Notes: generated by a model from the sequence alone, not told the origin. A stretch of DNA of 43,880 nucleotides from a virus (IMGVR_UViG_2877948078_000004), one strand, 5' to 3'. Numbered from the stretch's first letter, positions 3,613 through 43,880 are shown. Numbers and translations are program-made.

Positions 3613-3621
3613 ATTCACCCC

Positions 3622-4324: not shown

Positions 4325-4346
4325 CTTTATTGGGGTTATAAATATT

Positions 4347-7844: not shown

Positions 7845-7904
7845 TCCTCACGCTCCATAAATGACAAAACCGCCCGCAGGCGGTTTCACATAAAACATTT
7901 TGCA

Positions 7905-9217: not shown

Positions 9218-9222
9218 GGGAT

Positions 9223-9921
9223 TTACTGCGAAAGTTTGTTAATGGAAAGGAAGCCGCCAAAGTTGCCGACGTTATTGCGGAACTTACAACCGCTCAGGCA
9301 TTTGCTGCATTTATCCTTCGTGATATCGGACGTTGGCTGGTCATATTCATCCGCGACAGCCGGACCGCTATAACCGCACTCGTCACCGCGATAGGTCCAG
9401 GTGCAGGTGTTGGCCAGCATGATACGTCCCGGAAAAACAGCGCCATCCGTTTCCGTCGGCGTGGACAGTACAAAGGAGGCACTCACCGCGCTCAGTTCGC
9501 TGCACTGCTCAATGCGCCAGCGGCTGATCACCTCCTGCTCCGGATCGGCGTAACTGTTTCCGTTGACGAAGTTCACCGCATCCAGAAAACGGGCGTAAAC
9601 CTTACGCCGGACCACCGTTCCGCCGACCAGACTCTGCATATCTTCCGCCATCCCGGTGACCATACCGTACAGGTTAGAAACCGTCAGCGTGGGGCGCGTA
9701 CTGGTGCCTTTGCCATTCAGTTCAAAACCGCTCCCCTGAATGGGATACGGCTGATACTGTCGCCCCTGCCAGGTGACCGGCTCACCTTTTTCGTTCTGCT
9801 CATTACAGAAAAAATAACGTTCTCCACCGACCTCTGTCAGGTCGATTTCCCAGAGCACCACGCTGGCCGACTGCTCCGCACGGGTGCATTCATTCAGTGT
9901 TTCCTGCCGGATATCCTGCAT
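9223..9921 (-). CDS. L: Tail tip protein L
   Basis: 232 aa, lambda L-like (MQDIRQETLNECTRAEQSASVVLWEIDLTEVGGERYFFCNEQNEKGEPVTWQGRQYQPYPIQGSGFELNGKGTS...). Confidence 0.9.
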   Translation of the reverse strand: MQDIRQETLNECTRAEQSASVVLWEIDLTEVGGERYFFCNEQNEKGEPVTWQGRQYQPYPIQGSGFELNGKGTSTRPTLTVSNLYGMVTGMAEDMQSLVGGTVVRRKVYARFLDAVNFVNGNSYADPEQEVISRWRIEQCSELSAVSASFVLSTPTETDGAVFPGRIMLANTCTWTYRGDECGYSGPAVADEYDQPTSDITKDKCSKCLSGCKFRNNVGNFGGFLSINKLSQ

Positions 9922-10250
9922 CAGTTCACCACCTGTTCAAACTCTGCGCTGAACTCAACACGCAACATACTGACCCGCGACGACCATTTTGCGCAGGTCA
10001 CCTTTATCTGCCGCCACTCATAAGGCGGCGTCCACAGAAAGGATTTCCAGCCCCCGTGCTCTTCCAGAAACGACTCCAGTACCGTGGCCTCCTCACGGGG
10101 GACAGAAAGCGTCACGCTGTACGTTTTCAGGTTGGCATTCAGCCCGGCAGGCGCTCGCTGAGAATAGCCATCACCAAAGCGCACCTTTCTTACAGAAGGG
10201 ACCGAAGCCACATCCATACCGGGTTTCACTTTCCAGCGGAAGGTCTTCAT
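9921..10250 (-). CDS. M: Tail tip protein M
   Basis: 109 aa, lambda M-like (MKTFRWKVKPGMDVASVPSVRKVRFGDGYSQRAP...). Confidence 0.9.
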   Translation of the reverse strand: MKTFRWKVKPGMDVASVPSVRKVRFGDGYSQRAPAGLNANLKTYSVTLSVPREEATVLESFLEEHGGWKSFLWTPPYEWRQIKVTCAKWSSRVSMLRVEFSAEFEQVVN

Positions 10251-12808: not shown

Positions 12809-13235
12809 ACCGGACTCCTCCTGCGATCCCTTCTGATACTGTCATCAGCATTACGTCATCCTCCGTCATGTCCGCCACATCCGGGGAAGCGGGGATAACT
12901 TCATTCCCGTCCGGGCCAAAGCGGACACCTCCGGCAAGCCCTGCCGCTTTCTGCATCAGCACATCATCTTCAGGCTCTTCGTCAGCCTCGCGCCGGTTCA
13001 GCAGACTGAAATCCAGCGGATGCATATCCGGATCGCTGAAAAACAGGCTGAGCACGGTGTACGTCAGCCCGGAAAAGTGCATATCCAGCAGAACATCATG
13101 AAAATAATGGGTACTGTAAAAGCGGTGCCAGTCGGCATACTCCGTGGATGACATCCCGGCAAGCATGGCACGCCAGTCGGGTCGCCCCATCTCACGCGCC
13201 AGTTTCAGGGCAAAACTCAGCTCACCGTCGAACAC
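12801..13235 (-). CDS. T: T segment of the G-T tail assembly chaperone (expressed by -1 frameshift from G)
   Basis: 144 aa ORF in the -1 frame relative to G, lambda T-like sequence (…LAREMGRPDWRAMLAGMSSTEYADWHRFY…); GGGAAAG slippery heptamer at 13234..13240 (- strand) at the end of G. Confidence 0.85.
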   Translation of the reverse strand: MFDGELSFALKLAREMGRPDWRAMLAGMSSTEYADWHRFYSTHYFHDVLLDMHFSGLTYTVLSLFFSDPDMHPLDFSLLNRREADEEPEDDVLMQKAAGLAGGVRFGPDGNEVIPASPDVADMTEDDVMLMTVSEGIAGGVRYG

Positions 13236-13639
13236 TTTCCCGCAGAAACAGGCTCTGCGGGCCCGGCGTCCTCTGTCTGTTCAGGTGCATCATTCACAAC
13301 AAACTCAGACATACCGGACAGACGCATTACCACATTTTCAGCCTGAGCAATTGCCTCTGTGGGCCAGGTGGTAAGCACTTCCTGCTCAATCTGTTTAACG
13401 GCTTCATTCATGGACGGCATCTGCGTCTTCTGCGGATGGTTATGCCACAGGGACATCGCCACCAGAAACGCGCCGGTTCTGATGGCGTCTTCCACAGTAA
13501 ACTTCCGGTTGCTGTCTGACTCCGCCTGTTCTGCCTGCCGTTTCATCAGGGCGAGATGCTCAATGCGCTGCAGGGCTGACAGTTCAGAAAGCGTGACGGT
13601 CACACCGTTATGTTCAAATGATTCGGTTTTCAGGAACAT
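13217..13639 (-). CDS. G: Tail assembly chaperone G
   Basis: 140 aa, lambda G-like (MFLKTESFEHNGVTVTLSELSALQRIEHLALMKRQAEQ...). Confidence 0.9.
   Translation of the reverse strand: MFLKTESFEHNGVTVTLSELSALQRIEHLALMKRQAEQAESDSNRKFTVEDAIRTGAFLVAMSLWHNHPQKTQMPSMNEAVKQIEQEVLTTWPTEAIAQAENVVMRLSGMSEFVVNDAPEQTEDAGPAEPVSAGKCSTVS
13234..13240 (-). other. Programmed -1 ribosomal frameshift slippery site (GGGAAAG) for G-T fusion
   Basis: Plus strand reads CTTTCCC = GGGAAAG on - strand, located in the G/T overlap exactly as in lambda. Confidence 0.8.
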
Positions 13640-13654
13640 CGCTGACTCTCCGGA

Positions 13655-14395
13655 TTAACTGGCGGTGACGGTAATTTCTGCAACCGCAGCAAACTCACCA
13701 TTACCGGATACAACCGGAATGTTGACCTTGCCTGCAGCAACGCCGTTCACGGTGATGGTCATACCACTGACCGACACGGTGGCTTTTGTTTTATCCGCAG
13801 ACACCGCACGAAAGCTCTTGTCGGTTACGCCCTCCGGCTGGAAGGCCACGGTCAGCGTGGTGCTCTGCCCTTTCACCACCGAGGTGCTGGCAGGCGTCAC
13901 GGTCATGCCGGTTGCCGCTGTTACCATGCTGCGATCTTCTGCCATCGACGGACGTCCCACATTGGTGACTTTCACCGTGCGGGTGATCACTTCCTTCGCC
14001 GTCACCGCCTTACCGATACTGCTGACCCAGCCACGGAACACATCGACCGTGCCGTTCGGGAAGCGGATTTTATAGGCACGGGTATCGCCTTCATTAAACC
14101 ACGCCAGCAGCGCCTGCTGCCCCTGCTCTCCGGGCATCCACGCCAGCGTGAAGCTGGTATCTCCGGCAGATTTCTGCCCCTGCCCGGTCGCAGTCCAGTC
14201 TGCATCTTCATCATCGAGATAGCTGTCGTCATAGGACTCAGCGGTCAGTTCGCCGGGCGTCAGGTCTTTAACTTTTGCCAGACGCGACCAGTCAACGTCT
14301 GAAAGCGGATTCGCATAAGGGTCACCGCTCCCCTTATAAACCCACAGAGTGGTCCCGGCACCTTTCACCGGCATTGTAGGATTTGGTACAGGCAT
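13655..14395 (-). CDS. V: Major tail tube protein V
   Basis: Lambda V-like ([22 protein letters not shown]…), C-terminal Ig-like domain. Start set at MPVPN (246 aa); the track ORF extends 10 codons upstream to 14425. Confidence 0.9.
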
Positions 14396-14402
14396 AGCGT
14401 CC

Positions 14403-14798
14403 TCACATTTCATAGGTAATGACATAAGTCAGATCGGCTGAACTCCACAGGCCCGCATCATCGTCGCGCCGGTAGTCATAGCCGCTGGCCACCATACTGG
14501 TGATCAAATCTGACAGTGCCGGGATATCGCTCATCACCGGATAAATCCGGGACTCCATCCACGCATCCAGCTCTGAATCCGGCACCTGAGCAGGCAGGAA
14601 AACTTCGATATGCAGCTCCGCCTGCCAGGTATCGCTGTCCAGCTCTTCGCCCGTGTATTCAGCGCCGGTGAGATAAACGGCAACTGCCGGAAAATCCGCC
14701 TCATCAAAAACAGCGGGGCGACCATCAAAAAACGTCGCCCCGGTGTCATGCTTCTCCAGTGCATCCAGTACGGCTGCACGGAGTTCAGTATGTTTCAT
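14403..14798 (-). CDS. U: Tail terminator protein U
   Basis: 131 aa, lambda U-like ([31 protein letters not shown]…). Confidence 0.9.
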
Positions 14799-15373
14799 CG
14801 CTTTATTACCATCCTCAGTTGATGCTGCAGCGCATAGCCCAGCTCTTTCGGAAGACGTTCACGCCGTATCCGCTCAATATTTTGTTTAAACGCCGTGGTC
14901 AGCGGCACCGCCATCGGGATTTTCACCACATCAATGGGGTAACGGTTTTTCCCGGCCACACGCTGCATGACATGCCACCGGCCATTTTTCAGTTGCTGAA
15001 TAAACGCGCCGGGAATACGACGGTTACCCACCACAAGCACGCTGCCGCCACCTTTCAGGGATGAACGCTGCCCCTTTTTACGACGCCTGCGGCGCGAAAG
15101 GACAACCCGCGCATTACCCAGCTTGATTACGGGCAAATCCCCCCGGTTAACCTTGATTCTGGCCTGCGGATTTTTGACCGTGGCCCTTTTCAGCCTGGCC
15201 CTTTCCTTTACCAGTTTCCGGCGTACCTTTGTCTCACGGGCAACCTGTGACACCGACTGCGATATCGCGGATGAAGCAACGCGGTTAATGGCCATTGCGG
15301 CGGCACCGGGCACCGCCGTTCTGCTGATACGGCTGAGGTTTTCAACGGCCTGCTCAAGACCTTTTATGGCCAT
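14795..15373 (-). CDS. Z: Tail completion protein Z
   Basis: 192 aa, lambda Z-like; basic RRRRRKKGQR patch. Confidence 0.9.
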   Translation of the reverse strand: MAIKGLEQAVENLSRISRTAVPGAAAMAINRVASSAISQSVSQVARETKVRRKLVKERARLKRATVKNPQARIKVNRGDLPVIKLGNARVVLSRRRRRKKGQRSSLKGGGSVLVVGNRRIPGAFIQQLKNGRWHVMQRVAGKNRYPIDVVKIPMAVPLTTAFKQNIERIRRERLPKELGYALQHQLRMVIKR

Positions 15374-15384
15374 ACATCCCCCTT

Positions 15385-15738
15385 TCAGCGGCGACGGTTA
15401 ACGGCAGGCGGTACGCCCCGCCCAAGCCAGAGATGACAGCTTCCGCCATCATCCGGCGAAATCCGGTCTATCCAGAAGTTTTCCTCACCGATGGTCAGCG
15501 TGTCGCCGCGCCGCAGCTGCCGCACATCATCAGTCCGGACAAACAGGGACGGGCTGGAGCCTTCAACGCGCACGCCCTGTCCGGCATAGCTGATATTTTC
15601 AGGGTCATCAAAAACACCACGTATCACAGCACCGGACTGCTCACCGGATGTCATGGTGGCTGACGTTCCCATGTACCCGCGTATCGTTTCATCGGCGCAG
15701 GCAATGGCAGCATCGAACAGGTTATCGAAATCAGCCAC
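15385..15738 (-). CDS. FII: Head-tail joining protein FII
   Basis: 117 aa, lambda FII-like (MADFDNLFDAAIACADETIRGYMGT…). Confidence 0.9.
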   Translation of the reverse strand: MADFDNLFDAAIACADETIRGYMGTSATMTSGEQSGAVIRGVFDDPENISYAGQGVRVEGSSPSLFVRTDDVRQLRRGDTLTIGEENFWIDRISPDDGGSCHLWLGRGVPPAVNRRR

Positions 15739-15749
15739 AGCGCCTCCCG

Positions 15750-16145
15750 TTATTGCATTCTGGCCAGGCCGCGCTCTGTCATTTCAGCTGCCACACCGGC
15801 AGAGACACGGAACGCCGTTCCCGGCAGCACAAATGCCACAGCCTCATCCCGCGTGGCGTGAAGTGCATCAGTATGCAGCGTCACCAGTGCCACAACCGTG
15901 ACCAGATCAGCCGTATCAATCACGGTATCCGGCTGCGCTGATACAACCTCATTTTCATGTCCGGTCAGCGCATTTTCCGGGCTGACAGATGTGTCCTGAC
16001 CGGCAGCGTCATCCGTGTCATCAAGCTCCTCTTCCAGCTCTGCCACACGGAGTGCCAGTTCTTCTTTCGTCCCCGTCAGGCTGACATCACGGTTCAGTTG
16101 CTCACCCAGCACCTGAAGACGGGCAATCAGTTCATCTTTCGTCAT
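15750..16145 (-). CDS. FI: DNA packaging protein FI
   Basis: Lambda FI-like (MTKDELIARLQVLGEQLNRDVSLTGTKEELALRVAELEEELDD…); start chosen at MTKDEL with GGAGGAG RBS (track ORF extends 13 codons upstream). Confidence 0.9.
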   Translation of the reverse strand: MTKDELIARLQVLGEQLNRDVSLTGTKEELALRVAELEEELDDTDDAAGQDTSVSPENALTGHENEVVSAQPDTVIDTADLVTVVALVTLHTDALHATRDEAVAFVLPGTAFRVSAGVAAEMTERGLARMQ

Positions 16146-16186
16146 GGACTCCTCCACAGAGAGAAAATGGCCCCGAAGGGCCATGA

Positions 16187-17212
16187 TTACGCCAGTTGTA
16201 CGGACACGAACGCATCAGGGTCAGCCAGCAGCATCAGCGGTGCTGACTGAATCATGGTGAACTCACGCGCCGGATCGCCGGTGGTCACCCAGTTTTTCGG
16301 GTAGCGGGCAGAGGCGTTAATACCTTCGCGCTGTGCGTCCGCATCCTGAATGCAGCCATAGGTGCGCAGACCGCGTGCCTGAGTGTTCCCCAGCACCATC
16401 GTGTTGTCCGGAAGGAAGTTCTTTTTGACGTCGTTTTCCACGTACTGTCCGGAATACACGACGATCGCCGTATCGCCATACATCCCCTTATAGGACACCG
16501 CTTCGCCCAGGTCTTTTACCGCTGTCTCCAGCTCGGAATTAGAGCCGCGACGGGTATCCAGCTTCTCCTTGACGGCTTTGAAGGAACGGAACAGCGCCCA
16601 GCCTTTCGGATCAAACACGATGATATTCACCACACCGCTGGCGTTCAGCGCGTAGGCTTCGATATCGTCGGTCGGGTCATACGTGGACTTGTCACGCTTG
16701 CTCCACTCCGTACCGCCGGACTGCGTGATGTTGTTCGCCACACTGCGGCCCATATCCACTTCAACCGGATCGAAGGCTTCACCGGTCATGGTGTATTTGC
16801 CCTTAAGCACGGCAGAAACTGCCTGCATCTCTTCGACCTGAGCAATGGCCAGCTCTTCGTCTCGCATGTTCTGCAGGATGATGCGACGGCGGCGGTAAGC
16901 CGGGTCCGCCAGATTCTGTGGATCTTCATCCGGCAGGCGACGCAGGGTCATCTGCGGATTCACCTCATGCTTGGGCTTGACATATCCCGGTGTAAATTCA
17001 GAGGTGGATCCGCCACGGGAACGGATAACCTCACCGGAAACAATCGGCGAAACGTACAGCGCCATGTTTACCAGTCCCGGAATTTGTGAGAGATAGACTT
17101 TCTCCGTGGTGAAGGGATAGCTCTCACGGAAAAAGAGACGCAGAAACAGCGGATCAAACTTAAATTTCTGCTCATTTGCCGCCAGCAGTTGGGCGGTTGT
17201 GTACATCGACAT
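16187..17212 (-). CDS. E: Major capsid protein E
   Basis: 341 aa from MSMYTTAQLLAANEQKFKFDPLFLRLFFRESYPF…, matches lambda E; track ORF has 9 extra upstream codons. Confidence 0.95.
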   Translation of the reverse strand: MSMYTTAQLLAANEQKFKFDPLFLRLFFRESYPFTTEKVYLSQIPGLVNMALYVSPIVSGEVIRSRGGSTSEFTPGYVKPKHEVNPQMTLRRLPDEDPQNLADPAYRRRRIILQNMRDEELAIAQVEEMQAVSAVLKGKYTMTGEAFDPVEVDMGRSVANNITQSGGTEWSKRDKSTYDPTDDIEAYALNASGVVNIIVFDPKGWALFRSFKAVKEKLDTRRGSNSELETAVKDLGEAVSYKGMYGDTAIVVYSGQYVENDVKKNFLPDNTMVLGNTQARGLRTYGCIQDADAQREGINASARYPKNWVTTGDPAREFTMIQSAPLMLLADPDAFVSVQLA

Positions 17213-17267
17213 AAAAAAATCCCGTAAAAAAAGCCGCACAGGCGGCCTTTAGTGATGAAGGGTCAGG

Positions 17268-17600
17268 TTAAACGATGCTGATTGCCGTTCCGGCAAACGC
17301 GGTCCGTTTTTTCGTCTCGTCGCTGGCAGCCTCCGGCCAGAGCACATCCTCATAACGGAACGTGCCGGACTTGTAGAACGTCAGTGTGGTGCTGGTCTGG
17401 TCAGCAGCAACCGCCAGAATGCCAACGGCAGCACCGTCGGTGGTGCCATCCCAAGCAACCAGCTTACGGGTGGAGGTGTCCAGCATCAGCGGGGTCATTG
17501 CAGGCGCTTTCGCACTCAATCCGCCGGGCGCGGTTGCGGTATGAGCCGGGTCACTGTTGCCCAGCGGCTGGTAATGGGTAAAGGTTTCTTTGCTCGTCAT
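17268..17600 (-). CDS. D: Capsid decoration protein D
   Basis: 110 aa from [12 protein letters not shown]…, lambda D-like. Confidence 0.9.
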
Positions 17601-17609
17601 AAACATCCC

Positions 17610-18215
17610 TTACACTGGTGTGTTCAGCAAATCGTTAACGGCATCAGATGCCGGGTTACCTGCAGCCAGCGGTGCCGGTGCCCCCTGCATCAGACGATCC
17701 AGCGCAGTGTCACTGCGCGCCTGTGCACTCTGTGGTGCAGCTGCCAGAATGCGGCGGGCCGTTTCCACGGTCATACCGGGGGTTTCTGCCAGCACGCGGG
17801 CCTGTTCTTCGCGTCCGTGAGCCTCCTCACAGTTGAGGATCCCCATAATGCGGCTGTTTTCTGCCGCAACCGCAGCGGTGATCTGCGCGTTCACGTCCGG
17901 CTGCGCCGCGCTGGCGTTTTCGCCCTCCGTCGCTGGCACCACGTCAGTAACGTCAGCCTGCGAAGCAGTGGCTGAAACAGTTGTTGATTGAGTCTCTTTG
18001 GTCATTCGCCCTCCTGAGAGACGGGATTTACGTGCATCCAGTGCATCACGCATAACGGTGATCGCATCGGTGCTGTTGACAAGTTCATCAGCCAGTCCGG
18101 CATCAATGGCCTCCTGACCGCTGTACACTGCAGCCTCGGTATCCAGCACAGCCTGCACGGACAGGCCGGTATATGCCGACACCTTCTGCGCAAACATCTG
18201 GCGGGTTGCATCCAT
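17610..18215 (-). CDS. nu3: Scaffolding protein Nu3 (in-frame internal start within C)
   Basis: 201 codons from the internal Met to the shared C stop, the same nested arrangement as lambda C/Nu3. Confidence 0.6.
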   Translation of the reverse strand: MDATRQMFAQKVSAYTGLSVQAVLDTEAAVYSGQEAIDAGLADELVNSTDAITVMRDALDARKSRLSGGRMTKETQSTTVSATASQADVTDVVPATEGENASAAQPDVNAQITAAVAAENSRIMGILNCEEAHGREEQARVLAETPGMTVETARRILAAAPQSAQARSDTALDRLMQGAPAPLAAGNPASDAVNDLLNTPV

Positions 18216-18909
18216 CCGGGACTGCAGTGTCTCCCGGACGTCATCCGGAAGATGGCTGTAGGGGTTGCCATCCACCTTATGGCTGCCGCTGTAAATCAGC
18301 GTGATTTCCACGCCCTGTTTCTCCAGCGCAGCACCGTAATTACTGTGAGCCATCATGACGCCGATGGAGCCTGTCCGGGCGGTCTGCGTGACCAGACGCC
18401 GGGAGGCGGCGCTGGCAAGCAGCTGCCCTGCACTGCAGTTCATGTCATTGGCCAGCGCCCATACCGGCTTTATGTCACGCACACGGGCGATGATGTCAGC
18501 GCAGTCAAATGCCCCTGCCACCATTCCGCCGGGCGTGTCCATATCGAGCAGAATGCCGTCCACCATCGGGTCGCTGGCAGCCTGTTGCAGACGGGCGATA
18601 ATGCCGTTGTAACCGGTCATTCCCGAATACGGCTGCAGCGCCCGCGTCCGGCTGACCAGCGTGCCGGACACCGGCAGCACGGCGATGCCGTTCATGACCT
18701 GATAACTGCGGGCCTGTCGTGGTCCGTCATCATCACCGGATAACGCCAGCGTCGCGGGTGCCTCCGGGGCAGTCAGGCTGTCACCGGACACCGCATCCGT
18801 CAGGCGGCTGATCCCAAGCTGGCCTGCAAGCGCACAAAAGAAAACCCGCGCATAGGCGGGTTCAAGCATCAGTGGCTCATTAAAGGCCATACTGGCAATA
18901 TGCGGGAGA

Positions 18910-18929
<20 letters not shown>
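17610..18929 (-). CDS. C: Capsid assembly protease C (S49/ClpP-like); 3' third also encodes scaffold Nu3 in frame
   Basis: 439 aa from GTG start (VTAELRNLPHIASMAFNEPLMLEP…) preceded by GGAGGAG RBS, overlapping B by 20 nt as in lambda. An internal in-frame Met at 18215 (MDATRQMFAQKV…) corresponds to the Nu3 start. Confidence 0.9.
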
Positions 18930-22610
<3,681 letters not shown>

Positions 22611-22636
<26 letters not shown>

Positions 22637-23156
22637 TCAGCAACCCCGGTATCAGTTCATCCAGCGCGGCTGCTTTGTTCATGGCTTTGATGATATCCCG
22701 TTTCAGGAAATCAACATGTCGGTTTTCCAGTTCCGGAAAACGCCGCTGCACCGACAGGGGGATCCCGTCGAGAATACTGGCAATTTCACCTGCGATCCGC
22801 GACAGCACGAAAGTACAGAATGCGGTTTCCACCACTTCAGCGGAGTCTCTGGCATTTTTCAGCTCCTGTGCGTCGGCCTGCGCACGCGTAAGTCGATGGC
22901 GTTCGTACTCAATAGTCCCTGGCTGGAGATCTGTCTCGCTGGCCTGTCGCAGTTCTTCAACCTCCCGGCGCAGCTTTTCGTTCTCAATTTCAGCATCCCT
23001 TTCGGCATACCATTTTATGACGGCGGCAGAGTCATAAAGCACCTCATTACCCTTCCCACCGCCTCGCAGAACGGGCATTCCCTGCTCCTGCCAGTTCTGA
23101 ATGGTACGGATACTCGCGTCGAAAATTTCAGCCAGCTGCTTTTTGTTGACTTCCAT
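22611..23156 (-). CDS. nu1: Terminase small subunit Nu1
   Basis: 181 aa MEVNKKQLAEIFDASIRTIQNWQEQGMPVLRGGGKGNEVLYDSAAVIKWYAERD…, lambda Nu1-like with N-terminal winged HTH. Confidence 0.95.
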
Positions 23157-23159
23157 TGT

Positions 23160-23360
23160 TCATTCCACGGACAAAAACAGAGAAAGGAAACGACAGTGGC
23201 CAAAAAGCCCGTTTTCAGCACCTGTCGTTTCCTTTCTTTTCAGAGGGTATTTTAAATAAAAACATTAAGTTATGACGAAGAAGAACGGAAACGCCTTAAA
23301 CCGGAAAATTTTCATAAATAGCGAAAACCCGCGAGGTCGCCGCCCCGTAACCTGTCGGAT
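23160..23360. other. cos region (cosB-cosN-cosQ); 12-nt cohesive-end sequence at 23333..23344
   Basis: Plus strand AGGTCGCCGCCC at 23333..23344 is the reverse complement of the lambda left cohesive end GGGCGGCGACCT; flanking sequence (…gaaaacccgcgAGGTCGCCGCCCcgtaacctgtcggatc…) matches the lambda cos junction as I recall it. Confidence 0.85.
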
Positions 23361-23544
23361 CGCCGGAAAGGACCCGCAAAATGATAATGATTATCATCTA
23401 CATATCACAACGTGCATCTACGCCATCAAACCACGTCAAATAATCAATTATGACGCAGGTATCGTATTAATTGATCTGCATCAACTTAACGTAAAAACAA
23501 CTTCAGACAATACAAATCAGCGACACTGAATACGGGGCAACCTC

Positions 23545-23739
23545 ATGTCAACTAAGAACAGAACCCGCAGAACAACAACCCGCAACATCCGCTTTCCTAA
23601 CCAAATGATTGAACAAATTAACATCGCTCTTGAGCAAAAAGGGTCCGGGAATTTCTCAGCCTGGGTCATTGAAGCCTGCCGTCGGAGGCTAACGTCAGAA
23701 AAGAGAGCATATACATCAATTAAAAGTGATGAAGAATGA
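23545..23739 (+). CDS. ylcI: Small basic hypothetical protein (DLP12 YlcI-like)
   Basis: 64 aa ORF MSTKNRTRRTTTRNIRFPNQMIEQINIALEQKG…; position next to cos matches small right-end ORFs of lambdoid phages. Confidence 0.5.
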   Translation: MSTKNRTRRTTTRNIRFPNQMIEQINIALEQKGSGNFSAWVIEACRRRLTSEKRAYTSIKSDEE

Positions 23740-23903
23740 ACATCCCGCGTTCTTCCCTCCGAACAGGACGATATTGTAAATTCACTTAATTACGAGGGCA
23801 TTGCAGTAATTGAGTTGCAGTTTTACCACTTTCCTGACAGTGACAGACTGCGTGTTGGCTCTGTCACAGGTTAAGTAGTTTGAATGATTAGCAGTTATGG
23901 TGA

Positions 23904-25096: not shown

Positions 25097-25390
25097 ATGA
25101 AAAAAATGCTACTCGCTACTGCGCTGGCCCTGCTTATTACAGGATGTGCTCAACAGACATTTACTGTTCAAAACAAACAGACAGCAGTAGCACCAAAGGA
25201 AACCATCACCCATCATTTCTTCGTTTCTGGAATTGGGCAGAAGAAAACTGTCGATGCAGCTAAAATTTGTGGCGGCGCAGAAAATGTTGTTAAAACAGAA
25301 ACCCAGCAAACATTCGTAAATGGATTGCTCGGTTTTATTACTTTAGGCATTTATACTCCGCTGGAAGCGCGTGTGTATTGCTCAAAATAA
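25097..25390 (+). CDS. bor: Bor lipoprotein (serum-resistance moron)
   Basis: 97 aa with lipoprotein signal (MKKMLLATALALLITGC), near-identical to lambda Bor as I recall it. Confidence 0.9.
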   Translation: MKKMLLATALALLITGCAQQTFTVQNKQTAVAPKETITHHFFVSGIGQKKTVDAAKICGGAENVVKTETQQTFVNGLLGFITLGIYTPLEARVYCSK

Positions 25391-25421: not shown

Positions 25422-25883
25422 CTATCTGCACTGCTCATTAATATACTTCTGGGTTCCTTCCAGTTGTTTTTGCATAGTGATCAGCCTCTCTCTGAGGGTG
25501 AAATAATCCCGTTCAGCGGTGTCTGCCAGTCGGGGGGAGGCTGCATTATCCACGCCGGAGGCCGTGGTGGCTTCACGCACTGACTGACAGACTGCTTTGA
25601 TGTGCAACCGACGACGACCAGCGGCAACATCATCACGCAGAGCATCATTTTCAGCTTTAGCATCAGCTAACTCCTTCGTGTATTTTGCATCGAGCGCAGC
25701 AACATCACGCTGACGCATCTGCATGTCAGTAATTGCCGCGTTCGCTAGCTTCAGTTCTCTGGCATTTTTGTCGCGCTGGGCTTTGTAGGCGATTGCGTTA
25801 TCACGGTAATGATTGACCGCCCATGACAGGCTGACGATGATGCAGATAATCAGAGCGGATATAATCGCGGTTACTCTGCTCAC
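25422..25883 (-). CDS. Rz: Inner-membrane spanin Rz
   Basis: 153 aa from GTG ([17 protein letters not shown]…), overlapping the R stop (GTGA); lambda Rz-like including the C-terminus …[13 protein letters not shown]. Confidence 0.85.
25481..25663 (-). CDS. Rz1: Outer-membrane lipoprotein spanin Rz1 (embedded in Rz, +1 frame)
   Basis: 60 aa [50 protein letters not shown]…, lipobox LVVVGC and proline-rich, nested inside Rz. Confidence 0.85.
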
Positions 25884-26377
25884 TGTTGCCCCCACAAACA
25901 GACTTCACGCTCAATCTCACGACGAGTCATCAGGCCTTTCCATTGCTTACCGCCAGCGTATGTCCAGCGACGCAGCTGATCACATGCGCCTTTGATATCG
26001 CCCTGGTTTATTTTGCGAAGAAGCGTCGATGTTCTAAAATTGCCAGCACCCACGTTGTAAACGAATGAGTAAAGAGCGCCGCGCGTTGTTTCCGGTATAT
26101 CGACTTTGATATACGGGTTAATTTGTCTGGCGACAGTGGCAAGGTCTTTATTCAAGAGTGCTTTGCATTCTGCTTTGGTATACGTTTTACCGAGCATGAT
26201 GTCTTTTCCGGTGTGTCCGTGACATACAGTCCATACACCAACAATATCTTTGTATGGTATGTAGCTGACACCTTCCAGACCATCGTTACCACTTGGGCCA
26301 GTGATTAACACTGATGCTATAGCAATTGCTCCGCCACCAATAGCAGCAGCAACGGCTTTTCGTAATGATGGAGGCAT
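25880..26377 (-). CDS. R: SAR endolysin (phage 21 R21-type lysozyme with N-terminal signal-anchor-release domain)
   Basis: 165 aa; N-terminal weakly hydrophobic Gly/Ala-rich SAR segment ([20 protein letters not shown]) followed by a lysozyme domain; sequence matches phage 21 R as I recall it. Confidence 0.85.
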
Positions 26378-26592
26378 TATTCACCTCTCGCAGCCTTGCG
26401 CTTATCTTCTTTAATCTTGAAATAAAGGTTTGTCAGGTACGTCAGCAGGCCAAATACCAGGCTACCCAGCACACCTATTGCTGCCCACTGTGAGGGCGTG
26501 ACTTTATCGAGCAGCTGTAAAAACCAGTAACCGGCACTACCTGCTGAGGTGCCATAGGCGACACCCGTTGTTAACTTATCCATGGATTTCAT
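26377..26592 (-). CDS. S: Pinholin (phage 21 S21-type, class II holin) with dual-start motif
   Basis: 71 aa from [28 protein letters not shown]… with GAGGTGGGG RBS; Met1/Met4 dual start (antiholin/holin) as in S21; two TMDs; overlaps R start. Confidence 0.85.
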
Positions 26593-26720
26593 AACCCCAC
26601 CTCGCAGACAAAGCGGGTGTAAATTGAGGGAATACAACGTATCGCAAAAAAGCAGAAACGTAACAGACTCGGAGTCAGTGAATAACTCAGGTATTGGGTT
26701 ATCAGCTAATATCGAGACTC

Positions 26721-26751
26721 AAAAAATGGAAAAACCCGCTCGACGGCGGGT
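26721..26751 (-). terminator. Intrinsic terminator-like hairpin upstream of S on the late strand
   Basis: On - strand: ACCCGC-CGTCGA-GCGGGT followed by TTTTCCATTTTTT. Confidence 0.45.
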
Positions 26752-27181
26752 TTAAGCTGTGTGACGAAGTAACCACTCTTAACAGCATAACCAATTTTTT
26801 ACGTACGTAAACCACAAAATGATATTTGCGAGAATGCTACCGAGTATTGAAAACACCACTACAAATACATAAGCAAATCTCAACAAATAACCAACAAATA
26901 ATTTCCAGTGTTATTTTTAGCCGATTTAAATTGAACCTTCAAATTACAGAGCACTTATAAATAACAGCCGTTAATATAAATTGGCTAATAGATTTATTTT
27001 TATTCAGCCAAGATCCATGAATAGGATTCGATAGAAAAAAGTTCAGATAAAAATAGAGATCTACTTCACAAATCAAACGAGAAACCAAAACTTACATCTT
27101 GAAATAATCACATTGATTAGATGAATATTTATCGCGCAGTGACATCATTTTTTAATAATAGTTCAAAAAAAAGGGCTCACG

Positions 27182-28264
27182 ATGAAAAAATTAACAGTGG
27201 CAATTTCTGCTGTAGCTGCATCAGTACTGATGGCGATGTCTGCTCAGGCAGCTGAAATTTATAATAAAGACAGTAACAAGCTGGATCTATATGGGAAAGT
27301 TAATGCCAAGCACTACTTCTCCTCTAATGATGCAGATGATGGTGATACTACTTATGCCCGTCTTGGCTTCAAAGGTGAAACCCAAATCAACGATCAACTG
27401 ACTGGTTTCGGTCAGTGGGAATATGAATTCAAAGGCAACCGCGCTGAATCTCAAGGCTCCTCCAAAGACAAAACCCGTCTTGCATTTGCAGGCCTGAAAT
27501 TCGGGGACTACGGCTCAATCGATTACGGCCGTAACTACGGTGTAGCATATGACATCGGTGCGTGGACTGACGTTCTGCCAGAATTCGGTGGCGATACCTG
27601 GACCCAAACAGATGTGTTCATGACTGGTCGCACCACTGGTGTTGCAACTTATCGTAACAACGACTTCTTTGGTCTGGTTGATGGTCTGAACTTTGCTGCT
27701 CAGTATCAGGGTAAAAATGACCGCACTGACGTAACTGAAGCTAATGGTGATGGTTTCGGTTTCTCCACTACTTATGAGTATGAAGGATTCGGTGTAGGTG
27801 CAACCTATGCTAAATCTGACCGCACTAATAATCAGGTTATCTACGGTAACAACAGCCTGAATGCATCTGGTCAAAATGCTGAAGTATGGGCAGCTGGTCT
27901 GAAATATGATGCGAACAACATCTATCTGGCTACCACCTATTCTGAAACCCAGAACATGACTGTTTTTGGTAATAACCATATTGCCAACAAAGCACAAAAC
28001 TTCGAAGTAGTTGCACAATATCAGTTCGACTTCGGTCTGCGTCCGTCCGTTGCTTACCTGCAATCTAAAGGAAAAGACTTGGGTGCGTGGGGTGATCAGG
28101 ACCTGGTTGAATATATTGATGTAGGTGCAACCTATTACTTCAACAAAAATATGTCCACTTTTGTTGATTACAAAATCAACCTGATTGATAAGAGCGATTT
28201 CACGAAAGCATCTGGCGTTGCTACCGATGATATCGTTGCTGTAGGTATGGTTTACCAGTTCTAA
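27182..28264 (+). CDS. nmpC: OmpC/OmpF-family general porin (phage Lc / NmpC-like lysogenic-conversion porin)
   Basis: 360 aa with signal peptide ([23 protein letters not shown]), AEIYNKD… mature N-terminus, C-terminal …VGMVYQF beta-barrel signature; sits between Q and the lysis genes, opposite strand, as in DLP12/PA-2. Confidence 0.85.
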
Positions 28265-28400
28265 TTTGATTACTAAAAGATATGTTGCGGGAGGCTTTGC
28301 CTCCCCAACATATAAGTGGCTCCCTCAAGCCACTTCCTTTAGGAGCACAACCTTGCTTCTAACTATATAAACCTTCTGTTATATATTACCCTTTATTTTT

Positions 28401-28430
28401 GGGGGCGTTGCAACGCCCCATTTTTAATAA
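28401..28430 (+). terminator. Intrinsic terminator (perfect palindrome GGGGCGTTGCAACGCCCC + T-run) downstream of porin gene
   Basis: GC-rich perfect inverted repeat followed by ATTTTTAATAATTTTT on + strand. Confidence 0.55.
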
Positions 28431-28452
28431 TTTTTAGTAAACAATTGGCATA

Positions 28453-28836
28453 TTAATTAGAGTTATTAACAACGATATCCATCTCTAACCGGATATCTAA
28501 TGCCATTAACATCCCTTCAATTATGCCCTCAGCCTTCTGTAACCTTTTCCCGATATAACCATCAGAGCAGCAATGCTTACCTGCCAGTGACATGAATGTC
28601 ATACCGACTACATAATAATCTACTAATAAATCGTGCAAATCGCTGTTGTTCTTTTTCAGACGGGCCATGCACCCGCAAATAATCATCGCGTCATCGTCAC
28701 AACATTGCGGGCGAGATTTTACTTTTGAAGTAATTAATCCCTTAAAACCGGCGGCAATGGACGACCAGGTCACATCTTCATGATTATTAGCCGCCCACGC
28801 TCCCCAACGCTCAAGAACCATCTGAATATCACGCAT
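28453..28836 (-). CDS. quuD: Late-gene antiterminator Q (QuuD / phage 82-type Q)
   Basis: 127 aa from [22 protein letters not shown]… with GGAG RBS; Cys-rich zinc-binding core ([12 protein letters not shown]…HCC); track ORF has 5 extra upstream codons from TTG. Confidence 0.8.
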
Positions 28837-28918
28837 CAACTTACTCCACAAAAATCAGACCAGAACGCCAATTACAAGCAAAAATCAACAAAACAGTATT
28901 AGTTGATTGTTATCTCTG

Positions 28919-30460: not shown

Positions 30461-30496
30461 GTTCAGGCCAACGGTGACGGTATTATTGCTTATTGA

Positions 30497-30748
30497 TTAT
30501 GATTTTTCAATTTCATCAATAACCTTGTGATAGACAATACCAGAAAGGCCAACAGACAGTGGATGTTCATGAAATATTGGCTCATTTGCATAAACCCAAT
30601 GCCCGACAAATTCTTCTGGGCTTGATATGTATAACTCACGAAGAAAATGGAGATCCCTCTCTACAACTAATTTCGTATCGTCCAAGAGCGCTGCATTTAC
30701 GCTAGTTTTATGGCTGTGCATTAATTTACATTTGGTGAAGGACATCAT
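30497..30748 (-). CDS. Hypothetical protein (83 aa)
   Basis: ORF with strong AAGGAG RBS; no recognisable family. Confidence 0.5.
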   Translation of the reverse strand: MMSFTKCKLMHSHKTSVNAALLDDTKLVVERDLHFLRELYISSPEEFVGHWVYANEPIFHEHPLSVGLSGIVYHKVIDEIEKS

Positions 30749-30807
30749 GGCAAAAGCTCCTTTTTCTTATGAATCCATATGTTAGCTAAATTGGAGAGAC
30801 ACAGTAG

Positions 30808-31422
30808 CTAACGTTGTTTAATAACATTCTGACGCAAATGTGGCAATACTCGACTCCACTTATCATCCTGCCACGGCTGGAATTTTACATGTGCCGTTTC
30901 TCTGGCGAGGATTGCTCGCGCTCTGGTGAGTATCTGGGGATATTCTTGCTCGATGGAAGTGAAGCGACCAGCTTCACGATGCTCCGCAACCTGAAGAAGG
31001 GGAGTAACGTTCTGGCAGGCGGTTAACATCGCATCCCCAGCTCGCCATAACCAAGCAAGTGTGCAAAGTTCGTTATCAGTGAATTGTTTTGTGATCGGGG
31101 ATTGTTGAACTTCTCGATCGAGAATATCCAGAACCCAGCGGCGGAACTCTTTGGCTACAGGAGTTCGTGCAAACATGGCGATCAAATGGGCTCCGCGAAG
31201 GCTAAATACTCGAGACTCCTGCATTCCACGAGGGGTGGTCACTTTGACCACCCTTGTCATCATATCTGTAAATTCATCTGAGTGACGAGAGTAAATGCGC
31301 TGAACTGCTTTATCGTCCGCATATTCCAGAGCTAAACCAACTTCAGTGGCAGTAAGCCAAATTCTGTTATTGTGGCAAATTGGGGTAAACGTCGTTTTGT
31401 GGAATGCTAATTGAGTAGTCAT
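30808..31422 (-). CDS. Bro-N domain protein (putative antirepressor-like / DNA-binding)
   Basis: 204 aa; N-terminal region (…NNRIWLTATEVGLALEYADDKAVQRIYSRHSDEF…SLRGAHLIAMFARTPVAKEFRRWVLDILDREV) fits the Bro-N/KilA-N-like pattern; GAGGTGA RBS. Confidence 0.5.
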   Translation of the reverse strand: MTTQLAFHKTTFTPICHNNRIWLTATEVGLALEYADDKAVQRIYSRHSDEFTDMMTRVVKVTTPRGMQESRVFSLRGAHLIAMFARTPVAKEFRRWVLDILDREVQQSPITKQFTDNELCTLAWLWRAGDAMLTACQNVTPLLQVAEHREAGRFTSIEQEYPQILTRARAILARETAHVKFQPWQDDKWSRVLPHLRQNVIKQR

Positions 31423-31685
31423 AGTTTCACCTCATCAGGTTAACCATCACCACCAACGACGCCAATCGACTGGTGGTGAACTGTGCAAGGTTGGCGTAAC
31501 CGGCTACTCAAATCCGGCGCTCCCGAAGAAGCCCTCACACAGCCCACCATAATTTGGGCGTAGCCGTGCTTAGCGCATAAAAAAACCGCTTAACGCGGTA
31601 TGCGTTGAGTAGTATTCCGGGACGCCAATCCCGTGTGCCGATTTTGCGGCAACGCACAGAATATATCCCCAGATAAATCATGTCG

Positions 31686-31775
31686 TCAACCCCAGTAAAT
31701 GGACACCATGATGATCACAGCCATAGCTGCTACAACAGTTACAACTACCTCAGGCCAAAACATAACGATTTCCAT
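31686..31775 (-). CDS. 29-codon hydrophobic peptide (possible small membrane toxin-like ORF)
   Basis: MEIVMFWPEVVVTVVAAMAVIIMVSIYWG with AAGGTGA RBS; single predicted TM helix; sits just downstream (on - strand) of repeat copy B. Confidence 0.3.
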   Translation of the reverse strand: MEIVMFWPEVVVTVVAAMAVIIMVSIYWG

Positions 31776-31835
31776 ATCACCTTTAGCCGCCAGACGAATA
31801 GAGACTCCCAATTCTGGCTGTCGAAGTAAAACACC

Positions 31836-31943
31836 GAATGTAAAAAATCGTAGGTGCATTTCTGCATCTGTGAATGGAGAAGATAGGTTGGATTGTATGT
31901 GCGCATAAACGTCCCCGTTTAGCGCAGAAGTCACCGGAGTTGT
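31836..31943. repeat. Copy B of the ~105-bp imperfect direct repeat
   Basis: See copy A; the central ~50 bp differs between copies. Confidence 0.7.
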
Positions 31944-32033
31944 TCAGGCTCCGGCTTATTAATATTGCCTACTTACAATTAATTTTTCAACTGTTAGAAA
32001 CTTATAATTAGCTGTCTCTTTGTAACTATCAAT

Positions 32034-33930
32034 TTAATTATTTTTCTTTAACTTGAAATTTCTTCCCATTGCTAGTGTTCTTCGAAGATTCGAATCATAA
32101 GCTGGTTGATAATATCTATCATAAAAATCCTTAATTGTCTGATGGTAAGTATCCAGCATCAAACCATAAAACCCCATGACCTTAAGATAATCCACCAAGG
32201 GAAATAAATAATCATCAGTCTGAACATCAGTATCAATATTATTTTTTTGTTTTTTAACTTCAAATTTGTATAAGTTTAACTCACCCTTATCCATCGTGTA
32301 TGAAAAAAGGTCGTCAAAAATCAAATCAATTTTTGTCATAGGAACTCGTTCTTTTCCAGACATTATAGGTAGAATATCAATACCTAAGAGCGAACCTAAT
32401 ACAAAGTCGTAATGAAGCGAAATCACTGAGTCATTCGATGTCGAGTTGCCTTTGATAAATACTCTACTTAGTGCCGAGTCAAAAACATTCTCAACTCTCT
32501 CTCTCGTCATGTTTGCGACATCTACAACCCCCATATCACGAGAAGCTTTTATTGTGATTTCATCTATAAATGCTTTGGAATCTAGTGAATGTAAAAACAA
32601 CATGAAGTTATCTAACTGTTCAGAGCATTTAATAGCCACCATAAGATTTTCGTATATATCTTTTTTATACTCAATCGGTAAATTTGCTACCGCAAAAGCA
32701 GCATAAAATTCTTGCACTGATTTATGCAGAAAAACATACCTATTATTTCCCTCAGGTTGGATAAGGCAAGTTATCTCAATAAGATCATCTATAAAGTTTG
32801 ATGCATCTTCTTTAAGATAACCTTCTGTTTCAATAGCATCTTCAGCATATCTAAGCAACTCCTCTCCCCAAAACTCAAATTTCTCCTCAATCAGTGCGTT
32901 ATAGCAAATAGCTGAAAAACACAATTTAGCTTTTTCACCAATAATGTTTGATTTTTTCTCGCGCGTATATACTTTTATTTTATCATGCCTTGCATATAAG
33001 GTGTCAAAGAGGCTTCGATAAAACTCTATTATATTATTTGGAATATCATTCATATAAGGATAACAATAATACAAAAGAGTAACTAAAATTGGATTGCAAA
33101 TAGTTCCCTCAAGTTCTTCTTTATCACATAGTAAATCCGCCAAGACTTTAAACGAGGCATCACTACTTGAGAATCTGTCATTTTTCGATAAAGAATGAAG
33201 AATACAAATCTTATCAGAAATATTTAGCTTATCTATAAAAATATTATACACATCAGTAGTATAACATATATCTGTATTTGGTCTCGTTGTTGCGATAATT
33301 GGTGTGTTAAAATGATAATGAATGTTTTTTATTTCATTCATCATCATAGTTCGCTCTTCATGTTTAACCTCATCAAATCCATCCAACATTAAAACGACTC
33401 TTTGGGATTGCAGTAATATTTTCAAGCTATCCTCTGAACACCCCACACCAAATGAATTAAGAATGTCTGCCAGATAAGCAATAATATTTGCATTCTTCAC
33501 CCTTCTTAATTCAATAAAAAAAAGGCATCCGTTCTGATTTTTTTATTTCCTCGCTAAACAACTTGCGTAAAATAGTACTTTTCCCTTGCCCCGCTATACC
33601 GACTATATTTACAATACCATGAAATGGTAAAGTGACCCCATCTTTTATAACGACCTTGTCTTTATTAGATGCCACCTCAACAGTTAACGGATAATAAATA
33701 TCATCTAAAAAAATATCATAATCAGCGTTGTGCAAAGTTCTCATTTTCAGAGATGGTAGCACATGCTTTCTTAAATAATTTTCTCTTCCGAGGGGATCAT
33801 TTAATTGTTCGAGTATAACCTTGCCTTCATCTAGGTCCCTAGCCCAAGGTTTAGAGAGCAATACTTCTGTTATTTTTTCCGCAGCTTTTCCTACTGTGCT
33901 ATTAATAATAGTCGCAAGAAACTCATCCAT
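32034..33930 (-). pseudogene. NACHT/STAND-family P-loop NTPase, interrupted by a +1 frameshift at an A8/T8 homopolymer (33516..33523)
   Basis: Upstream ORF (33511..33987) ends just after Walker A (GIAGQGKST); downstream ORF (32034..33500) begins just before Walker B (VVLMLDGFDEV) and sensor-1-like IIATTRP. Removing one T from the T8 run (- strand) fuses both into a single ~630-aa reading frame. Low-GC island. Probable start at MDEFLATI (33930) with GGTGA RBS. Confidence 0.6.
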
Positions 33931-34318
33931 TTTTTCACCACATTCATTAACCAATACGTGGTGCATTCTTACAAGACTCAGTAACAATTGTCAATCATAG
34001 GTTTTCGCATGATTGCAAAACGCCATAAACAATTGTAGCACCATAATTTTAAACACTATATAATATACAACCTTCCTACAAGCATTCAGTACATCGCTTA
34101 ATCACAGGGCTTGAATATATAGTAAGGAATCGATATTAATCACCTCATCTACTTTAAACATCTTACACACCTATAATTTATAATAGTCAACACGAGGTCA
34201 TCATATTAAACATGCAATTACAAACATTCATTTTTATATAAATTTTCATGATTTAACCGTAGAGCGACGGTAATAAATTTCATATACAAGGATTTAAGCT
34301 CCCATACGTTTTCTATTA

Positions 34319-34498
34319 TTAAAAATAACATACCGTTCGCCAGACCTTACCATCAATGACCAGGATTCCTGCCCGCGCCATTTTTGCCGCAGCCTGATTT
34401 ATGCTGGTTAATGTCACACCTGTTGTCGCAGCAACGTCCGGCGCACAGAAGCTCTTGTGCGTCCCCAGGTAATGAATAATTGCTTCTTTTCCCGTCAT
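34319..34498 (-). CDS. ren: Ren-like protein, C-terminally truncated relative to lambda Ren
   Basis: 59 codons MTGKEAIIHYLGTHKSFCAPDVAATTGVTLTSINQAAAKMARAGILVIDGKVWRTV… match the N-terminal part of lambda Ren; stops where similarity to lambda ends; start overlaps P stop (ATGA). Confidence 0.6.
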   Translation of the reverse strand: MTGKEAIIHYLGTHKSFCAPDVAATTGVTLTSINQAAAKMARAGILVIDGKVWRTVCYF

Positions 34499-42518: not shown

Positions 42519-42861
42519 GGCCTGTCAGTTTCTTAAGATATCCAGACCAACCGCCACCAACTGGATACGAACAGGCCGCCTACAGGCAACACGTAAAGAT
42601 CCAACCAAGCCGAAATCTCCTTACCTCACAACACGGCAAGCCTGCATTGCGGCGCTTCAGTCTCCGCTGCATACTGTCCAGGTGAGCGCGGGTGATGGCA
42701 TAACAGAGGAAAGAAAATGTCACTCTTCCGCAGAAATGAAATATGGTATGCCTCGTATTCGCTCCCGGGCGGGAAACGAATTAAGGAATCTCTTGGCACA
42801 AAGGACAAGCGGCAAGCTCAGGAGTTGCACGACAAGCGAAAAGCAGAACTCTGGCGAGTAG
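42490..42861 (+). CDS. xis: Excisionase (AlpA/MerR-like HTH) with C-terminal extension
   Basis: ATG with GAGGT RBS; N-terminal HTH ([28 protein letters not shown]) typical of AlpA-type excisionases. Reading frame stays open 145 nt into int, so the true C-terminal extent is uncertain. Confidence 0.6.
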
Positions 42862-43880
42862 AAAAGCTAGGGGATTTACCTGATGTCACTTTTGAAGAGG
42901 CCTGCCTAAGATGGCTTGAGGAAAAAGCTGATAAAAAATCTCTCGATTCAGATAAAAGCCGGATTGAGTTCTGGCTTGAACATTTTGAGGGTATAAGGCT
43001 TAAAGATATCTCGGAGGCAAAGATTTACTCTGCTGTAAGCAGAATGCATAACAGAAAGACGAAAGAAATATGGAAACAGAAAGTTCAGGCCGCCATCAGG
43101 AAAGGTAAAGAACCGCCTGTTTATGAACCAAAGCCAGTATCAACTCAGACAAAGGCAAAGCATCTTGCCATGATAAAGGCCATTCTCCGTGCTGCAGAAC
43201 GCGACTGGAAGTGGCTGGAAAAAGCGCCTGTCATCAAGATACCAGCGGTCAGAAACAAGCGAGTCAGATGGCTGGAAAAGGAGGAAGCAAAACGCCTTAT
43301 TGATGAGTGCCCCGAACCACTGAAATCTGTCGTCAAGTTTGCGCTGGCAACTGGTCTGAGAAAGTCGAACATCATAAATCTGGAATGGCAACAAATCGAC
43401 ATGCAGCGACGAGTTGCCTGGGTGAATCCAGAAGAGAGCAAATCAAACCGCGCCATTGGTGTGGCGCTGAACGATACCGCCTGTAAAGTGTTGCGTGATC
43501 AAATAGGCAAGCATCACAAATGGGTGTTTGTACATACCAAGGCGGCTAAGCGAGCAGATGGAACATCAACGCCTGCGGTCAGGAAGATGCGCATCGACAG
43601 CAAGACATCATGGCTATCAGCTTGTCGTCGTGCAGGAATTGAAGATTTCCGTTTCCATGACCTCAGACACACCTGGGCAAGCTGGCTGATTCAGTCAGGC
43701 GTCCCATTATCAGTGCTTCAGGAAATGGGCGGATGGGAGTCCATAGAAATGGTTCGTAGGTATGCTCACCTTGCGCCTAATCATTTGACAGAGCATGCGA
43801 GGAAAATAGACGACATTTTTGGTGATAATGTCCCAAATATGTCCCACTCTGGAATTATGGAGGATATAAAGAAGGCGTAA
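42717..43880 (+). CDS. int: Tyrosine recombinase / phage integrase (P4-type family)
   Basis: 387 aa; N-terminal [35 protein letters not shown]… and C-terminal catalytic motifs (…[15 protein letters not shown]…MVRRYAHL) with the R..HxxR..Y pattern; stop is the last codon of the window, so att lies beyond it. Confidence 0.9.

Follow-up and report, generated by a model that had tools for sequence, protein, structure and literature searches.

Phage-borne porins of the NmpC/Lc type have been an object of study since the 1970s. The locus analysed here, a porin gene in reverse orientation between the antiterminator gene Q and the lysis genes S, R and Rz, lies in IMGVR_UViG_2877948078_000004, a viral DNA of 43,880 nucleotides that is called the window below, at its full length, and its close relatives are lc of the lambdoid phage PA-2 and nmpC of the cryptic prophage DLP12 (qsr') of Escherichia coli K-12. 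The original lc record of PA-2 (J02580.1; Blasband, Marcotte and Schnaitman 1986) aligns over all of its 2,816 bp with window positions 25690..28490 at 94.5% DNA identity and has the same gene order and orientation, with Rz, R and S on one strand and the porin on the other; our literature searches on PA-2 and Lc returned no matching paper. The window porin is 91.4% identical to the Lc protein and 5 residues shorter, the two 3' untranslated regions (UTRs) are 96.8% identical, and both CRP sites annotated in PA-2 recur exactly in the window, at 26757..26777 and 27053..27073. DLP12 NmpC, rebuilt without the insertion sequence IS5, likewise shares 91.4% identity with the window porin, and its neighbourhood (rusA, ylcG, quuD, nmpC, essD, rrrD, rzpD) is that of the window, with an nmpC-essD spacer of 98% identity. 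In K-12, however, IS5 interrupts nmpC after codon 346 and leaves it silent as a porin, whereas the window copy is uninterrupted, and 16 nt of late leader downstream of a hairpin are missing from K-12 but present in the window. The arrangement Q-porin-S is found in 36 phage records, as well as in K-12 DLP12 and PA-2, and the module (26640..28452) is present at a coverage of at least 80% in nearly half of the complete E. coli genomes (2,465 of 5,426). The window carries a known element: an intact copy of the classical NmpC/Lc porin module, with an IpeX-type 3' UTR. Taking the evidence together, we consider it likely that the module occupies the gap between Q and the late promoter PR', lies outside the Q-dependent late transcript and is expressed from its own promoter in the lysogen.

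The gene itself, its boundaries and its homologies are directly observed. The porin protein covers the Pfam profile Porin_1 (PF00267) from its first to its last position (1-337 of 337, E 3e-153), passes the curated cut-off of the NCBIfam model 'porin OmpC' (518 bits, cut-off 484), and aligns from residue 24 to its last residue, 360, with the solved chains of OmpC, OmpK36, OmpF and PhoE (E 1e-135 to 1e-116). Both hallmarks of export and assembly in general porins are present, namely a cleavable signal peptide (23 residues, with the boundary between SAQA and AEIYNK) and a C-terminal aromatic residue (the final Phe of VYQF). The protein is predicted to form a trimeric 16-stranded barrel with a diffusion pore, as implied by its similarity to solved OmpC and OmpK36 (E ~1e-135), and its differences from Lc and NmpC are grouped in three short stretches that we take to be surface loops. 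The original prediction, which had been made without database searches, described an intact, full-length porin with a signal peptide on the opposite strand of the Q-S interval, and the open reading frame (ORF) together with the Pfam, NCBIfam and solved-chain matches bears this out, as do the coordinates and families of the flanking genes Q (28453..28836) and S (26377..26592), both on the minus strand. It had also drawn the porin as the interval 27182-28430; the start of this interval stands, but its end does not, since the coding sequence (CDS) stops at 28264 and the rest consists of the 3' UTR and an intrinsic terminator. Lysogenic conversion by the porin, which it proposed as well, is established biology of the close relatives Lc and NmpC.

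Over 26300..28900 the window and the phages PhiR68_2 and PhiR34_1 do not differ (100% identity). In the PhiR68_2 record (PV340576.1) the porin is annotated as two 'OmpD' CDSs (3322..4465), an assignment that we reject as an annotation artefact in which the true start and the signal peptide were missed, because the PhiR68_2 DNA equals the window DNA, in which an uninterrupted frame begins with the ATG at 27182.

Together with its control regions, the porin gene is a self-contained cargo unit (moron) of 1,641 bp (26812..28452), with its own promoter, its own terminator and flanks (Q and PR') that are adjacent to each other in Sp5, PhiR5_1, PhiR49_2 and Stx2d_112808. We place the porin promoter by homology to the mapped nmpC promoter of K-12, whose region is 98% identical to its window counterpart. 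The K-12 promoter is active and of the sigma-70 type, and 5' rapid amplification of cDNA ends places its start at a 'G'; the regulators listed for it are CRP as activator, with two sites, and OmpR, IHF and MprA as repressors (PMC11677980). One of the two CRP sites found in the window, 27053..27073, is centred ~-71.5 from the predicted porin start, a standard activating position. The other, 'CRP site 1' of PA-2 (26757..26777), was considered as a porin control site and set aside, being more likely a part of the late leader because it occupies +1..+21 of PR', at a distance of ~360 nt from the porin start. The TGTGA half-site at this place occurs in the three porin-carrying sequences examined (the window, 434B/DLP12 and PA-2), and the corresponding position reads TGTGG or CGTGG in the other phages compared.

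Downstream of the gene, the 3' UTR (28265..28432) corresponds to the stretch in which DLP12 carries the small RNA IpeX; it shares 98% identity with the 434B/DLP12-type sequence, and its fold has -62.9 kcal/mol (z = -7.8 against shuffled controls). The Q protein of the 434B hybrid (quuD type) is identical to that of the window, and we take this part of the hybrid to be derived from DLP12. A search of the whole window against Rfam at gathering thresholds gave no match in 26300..28900, and as no match to an IpeX or StxS family reached threshold, the search is uninformative on either; Rfam has no family that matches the 3' UTR. The ipeX region is reported to reduce OmpC and OmpF (Castillo-Keller et al. 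2006). By analogy with PA-2 and ipeX, for which they are known from the literature, expression in the lysogen and a reduction of OmpC and OmpF may be expected of the window module also.

Late transcription most likely starts beyond the porin gene in the late direction, as judged from relatives in which the promoter has been mapped. On the late strand, window positions 26811..26725 are homologous to the end of Q and the sequence just beyond it in 933W-type Shiga-toxin (Stx) phages, so that Stx-phage gTTTACGatcgtaaaaatctgcaTATCATgataagAgtggttac…aacccgccgatgcgcgggttttttt aligns with window TTTACGtacgtaaaaaattggtTATGCTgttaagAgtggttac…aaacccgccgtcgagcgggtttttccatttttt, and Sp5 and Stx2 II carry TTTACG-16-TATCAT at the end of Q in alignment with the window PR'. 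Between the Q proteins of the window and of 933W-type Stx phages, identity is 79-83%, the value varying with the alignment method. For the Sakai prophage Sp5, Sy, Lan and Tree mapped the primary PR' start by differential RNA sequencing (dRNA-seq) and the 3' end at tR' by Term-seq, 258 nt apart (PMC7547250). In the Sakai sequence, the position 258 nt before the final T of the tR' T run is an A, seven nt after TATCAT; we placed the start by this distance and not by absolute coordinates, because the latter are offset by a constant 142 between genome versions. The annotation of AF548457 names the PR' element 'pR', putative late promoter' and calls the homologue of the hairpin a 'possible rho-independent terminator'. 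In the late-leader block most columns, 43 in all, are invariant across nine phages whose Q proteins are 45-100% identical, and in phage 75/02 the stem of the hairpin is kept through a change on both arms. From the predicted PR' start, the S start codon is at +186, and the most plausible role of the hairpin at ~26721..26753 is that of a terminator overridden by Q. The K-12 DLP12 spacer holds an identical PR' homologue and hairpin (NC_000913.3, ~577,229..577,285), with a predicted start at ~577,229, 169 nt before essD because of the 16 nt of leader missing in K-12.

This placement bears directly on the explanation that had been advanced for the locus, in which PR' directly follows Q, Q-modified transcripts cross the porin gene and an AT-rich region in antisense, over ~1.9 kb, on their way to S, and porin expression is shut off on induction. 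Such a layout is the one seen in lambda, phage 21 and 933W-type phages, where PR' does follow Q directly, and in the window Q and the porin gene are convergent and merely 188 bp apart. Yet these 188 bp, which comprise the porin 3' UTR and terminator, occur in only 36 phage records, the same number as the whole module, compared with 401 records for the Q family and 363 for the leader/promoter segment 26812..26730. The 188 bp are therefore tied to the porin and not to Q, whereas the spread of the promoter segment roughly equals that of the Q family. Neither a consensus promoter scan nor a sigma-70 matrix found a promoter-like site on the late strand in the 188 bp beside Q, while positions 26811..26721 hold the counterpart of the mapped PR' together with leader and hairpin, and the palindrome in the promoter spacer fits the Q allele (see below). 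We accordingly regard the antisense explanation as highly improbable. The late transcripts proposed in the original prediction to cross the porin in antisense are at odds with a PR' homologue at 26811..26777, past the porin, and the late promoter downstream of the porin gene that it had named as the finding that would speak against it was found, by homology rather than by a mapped transcript. Its '540-bp AT-rich leader' (the interval from the porin start to the longest S reading frame measures 544 bp) shrinks to a late leader of ~185 nt (26777..26593), since 26812..27181 (~370 bp) is the upstream control region of the porin. Its suggestion that a hairpin at 26721..26751 is the Q-modified terminator, by contrast, holds up: the hairpin is real, it occupies +25..+57 of PR', and the span given for it covers the T run and most of the stem.

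Several observations weigh against placing the late promoter at this position. The consensus scan, at a threshold of 9 of 12, found no site on the late strand anywhere from Q to S and so missed the PR' homologue as well, and in a simple sigma-70 matrix scan the homologue ranks fourth among the late-strand candidates, which means that sequence scoring alone cannot place the promoter. The window -10 hexamer TATGCT is weaker than the TATCAT of the Stx phages. We looked for a sigma-dependent pause element in the nearly invariant first transcribed bases and found no clear one, as no TATAAT-like hexamer there was convincing and conserved. In Stx phages, transcripts pass the homologous first hairpin and end at a second terminator at +258 (PMC7547250), which makes the efficiency of the hairpin at 26753..26732 uncertain. 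In the K-12 Term-seq tables of Adams et al. 2021, essD, nmpC and quuD are all missing, and no 3' end is recorded at 57727x/57728x, where one is predicted. The position of PR' is, moreover, drawn from homology to mapped relatives and not from a transcript of this phage or of another porin phage, an RpoE-dependent promoter may lie ~355 nt further upstream of the PR' start, and transcripts of the early operon could read through past Q and cross the porin in antisense.

The RpoE-dependent promoter is essDp, a host sigma-E promoter from which the lysis genes might mainly be transcribed and at which Q would then act; its late-strand start, at ~27133, would adjoin the porin promoter in divergent orientation. 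PMC7918800, citing Rueggeberg et al. 2015, puts the DLP12 lysis operon under Q and RpoE, with a regulatory region of -121..+650, and the forward primer in the supplement of that paper matches 27235..27254, which sets +1 near 27133; the reverse primer has no exact match in the window, so that the end of the amplicon, at ~26469..26487, is approximate. A sigma-E-like motif is found at 27164..27138, where K-12 is identical except for one base in a T run upstream of the motif. Against this, the location of essDp is derived from the primer and the amplicon statement, and the reporter fragment also spans the PR' homologue, at ~+323..+350, which could explain the response to Q. The list of sites from genomic SELEX (systematic evolution of ligands by exponential enrichment) with the RpoE holoenzyme has no site in the spacer, where only an RpoS peak is recorded, and the motif has no counterpart in porin-less phages of the same Q type, whose late genes depend on the conserved PR'. 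We judge essDp unlikely to be the main promoter of the lysis genes. It would not rescue the antisense model in any case, because it too is downstream of the porin CDS and would overlap the porin promoter and 5' UTR.

Antisense transcription over the porin on induction might also come from the early rightward operon, independently of Q activity, if the Q-encoding transcripts run on beyond the Q stop codon into the porin 3' end. Such read-through is suggested by the hairpin that the two strands share, which on the late strand (28419..28402) is followed by CAAAAATAAAGGG and not by the T run of a terminator tail; Q itself needs transcription from upstream, and the next strong terminator found on the late strand is the one at 26753..26732. 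No N-type antiterminator was recognisable in the window, including beside the repressor gene, and an untranslated antisense RNA would thus probably be stopped by Rho. In K-12, an IS5 transposition assay that responds to transcription entering from the quuD side was unaffected by a strong terminator placed between quuD and nmpC, though the prophage there is uninduced and defective (PMC11677980). Read-through of this kind is possible but, in our view, somewhat doubtful.

We therefore return to a PR' that lies past the porin gene. The porin unit would then sit, in reverse orientation, between the Q stop codon and PR' and not between PR' and the lysis genes, and the porin gene would be outside the Q-dependent late transcript because of this position. 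The further steps are inferred or taken from published relatives. Q would act at a distance on PR' (26811..26784, start ~26777); without Q, transcripts would end at the hairpin (+25..+57), and with Q they would read through into S, R and Rz. In the lysogen, the CRP-activated sigma-70 promoter of the porin would supply the outer membrane with a new pore, and the porin 3' UTR would lower OmpC and OmpF.

The gap between Q and PR' is empty in 933W/Sp5, PhiR5_1, PhiR49_2 and Stx2d_112808, and where it is filled the cargo differs by phage, including a 197-aa (amino acid) ORF, a GIY-YIG nuclease, one to three reverse-strand ORFs of unknown function and an insertion sequence element. The filled gaps lie at 3382..4161, 863..2500, 532..2720, 573..1900, 2450..4980 and 540..1480 of the comparison sequences L004, L008, L014, L015, L016 and L018, respectively. 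Across 13 pairs of Q and promoter, the palindrome over the -35 hexamer and spacer falls into four types that match four Q clusters exactly, in all 13 phages, while the transcribed leader is nearly invariant. The cluster of the window, DLP12, 75/02 and 933W, with Q proteins 81-100% identical, has TTTACG(TA or AT)CGTAAA, of which both central variants are symmetric (counting this two-base variant separately would give a fifth type); PhiR5_1, SfIV and mEp390 have GCGGTCCGC, WGPS2 and EH1992 have GCGTACGC, and phiP27 has GGAATTCC. Identity of Q between clusters is only 44-58%, and the match of palindrome and Q holds regardless of whether Q and promoter adjoin or are separated by 0.8 to 2.5 kb of unrelated cargo. 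The palindrome sites compared include those of the window and of the sequences L003, L004, L007, L008, L011 and L014-L019. The palindrome is thus a candidate Q-binding element of 933W/DLP12-type Q, although linkage alone could explain part of the pattern. That the gap from Q stop to PR' is, in phages with a 933W/DLP12-type Q, a recurrent cargo slot that escapes Q-driven late transcription, and that the allele-specific palindromes are at the same time unrecognised Q-binding elements, is a joint proposal for and against which we see the case as evenly balanced. The coordinates of the features are collected in Table 1.

Table 1 Features of the porin locus and its neighbours in the window
Feature	Position	Strand	Details and basis
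Bor	25097..25390	+	
Rz, after endolysin	25422..25895	-	
Endolysin, after S	25880..26377	-	
Holin S, phage 21 type, first late gene	26377..26592	-	Dual start MKSMDK; ORF, profile match, homologous annotation
Candidate tR' intrinsic terminator	Stem 26753..26732 (+25..+46), T run 26731..26721 to +57	-	TTCCATTTTTT; terminator scan
Conserved late-leader block, contains the hairpin	26730..26783	-	TTAAGAGTGGTTAC...; 9-phage alignment
PR', by homology	-35 26811..26806; -10 26789..26784; start ~A26777	-	TTTACG, 16-nt spacer, TATGCT; alignment with Stx phages
14-bp palindrome, candidate Q-binding element	26811..26798	-	TTTACGTACGTAAA; tracks Q allele
CRP site	27053..27073	+	Exact match to site annotated in PA-2 J02580.1
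Porin promoter	-35 27099..27104; -10 27123..27128; start ~G27134	+	TTGAAA, GAATAT; predicted hexamers
Sigma-E-like motif, probable essDp site	27164..27138	-	GAACTA-16-TCACT; predicted location, start near 27133
Porin CDS, allele of NmpC/Lc	27182..28264	+	360 aa, single ORF; signal peptide 27182..27250
Porin 3' UTR, equivalent to IpeX region of DLP12	28265..28435	+	Identity, fold, terminator
Porin intrinsic terminator	Hairpin 28402..28419, then T run	+	ATTTTTAATAATTTTT; terminator scan
Antiterminator Q, 127 aa	28453..28836	-	Pfam Phage_antitermQ PF06530, E 4e-53

The window as a whole is a complete lambda-like prophage in reverse orientation, with tail and head genes at 1..23756 and the integrase gene at 42717..43880, and over most, though not all, of its length it is ~97-98% identical to the Escherichia phage PhiR68_2. 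A segment at 30478..34332 is missing from that otherwise near-identical phage. On the minus strand, 30808..31651 looks like a P1/P7-style c4-ant immunity module in the nin region: an antirepressor gene (30808..31422) with Bro-N and P22_AR_C domains has directly upstream of it the Rfam matches C4 antisense RNA (31469..31554) and isrK (31579..31651). Two neighbouring ORFs at 32034..33987 on the same strand, one of 158 aa (P-loop, weak NB-ARC match) and one of 488 aa (weak NACHT match), match successive parts of a single PHROG profile of 672 positions (phrog_18297) and look like one NACHT-like nucleoside triphosphatase split by a frameshift near 33500..33511; PADLOC gave no significant match for the 488-aa ORF and only marginal ones for the 158-aa ORF (E ~0.004-0.006). 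In the side tail fibre and tail-fibre assembly region, a full-length match to Rfam IS009 (226.7 bits, 132..330, minus strand) is probably conserved coding sequence and not a separate RNA gene.

The porin itself is nothing new, and the modest new points, the varied cargo in the gap between Q and PR' and the palindrome that tracks the Q allele, are by-products that do not belong to the porin finding itself. What is useful is a correction: in this phage group the late promoter does not always adjoin Q, and a position 'between Q and S' therefore does not by itself tell whether cargo shares the late transcript or is crossed by it in antisense. Predictions of how prophage cargo behaves on induction are affected, as a comparison with the Stx phages illustrates. 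The PR'-tR' cassette of 933W/Sp5, the source of the small RNA StxS (PMC7547250), belongs to a Q of the same family (~80% identity) and has in common with the window the -35 hexamer, the 16-nt spacer and the palindrome family, and its first ~50 nt of leader, including the first hairpin, are homologous. In Stx phages, however, Q is longer (144 aa, as against 127 aa in the window) and its final codons overlap the promoter, whereas the window PR' is 1.64 kb away from Q; they also have the second terminator at +258, which the window does not. Their cargo (tRNAs and stx) is downstream of PR' and is therefore expressed with the late genes, the stx genes being induced, whereas the 1.64 kb of cargo in the window is upstream of PR' and the porin would not be part of the late transcript.

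Phage 21 (OL657228; structures 6P18 and 6JNX) offers the second comparison. Its Q belongs to the same Pfam family but is only distantly related to that of the window (E 7.6e-7), and it carries tRNAs and no porin. Its holin, endolysin and spanin genes are of the same type as those of the window, and the layout is alike, with a Q-binding element in the promoter spacer and a terminator at +2..+49. For the Q proteins of the 933W type, which are of medical relevance, the palindromes offer a candidate recognition site that can be tested cheaply. Q21 binds a direct repeat (ATTGAGCA, AATGAGCA); the candidate in the window is a palindrome, and the palindrome reading, if true, would imply that 933W/DLP12-type Q recognises an inverted repeat, unlike Q21.

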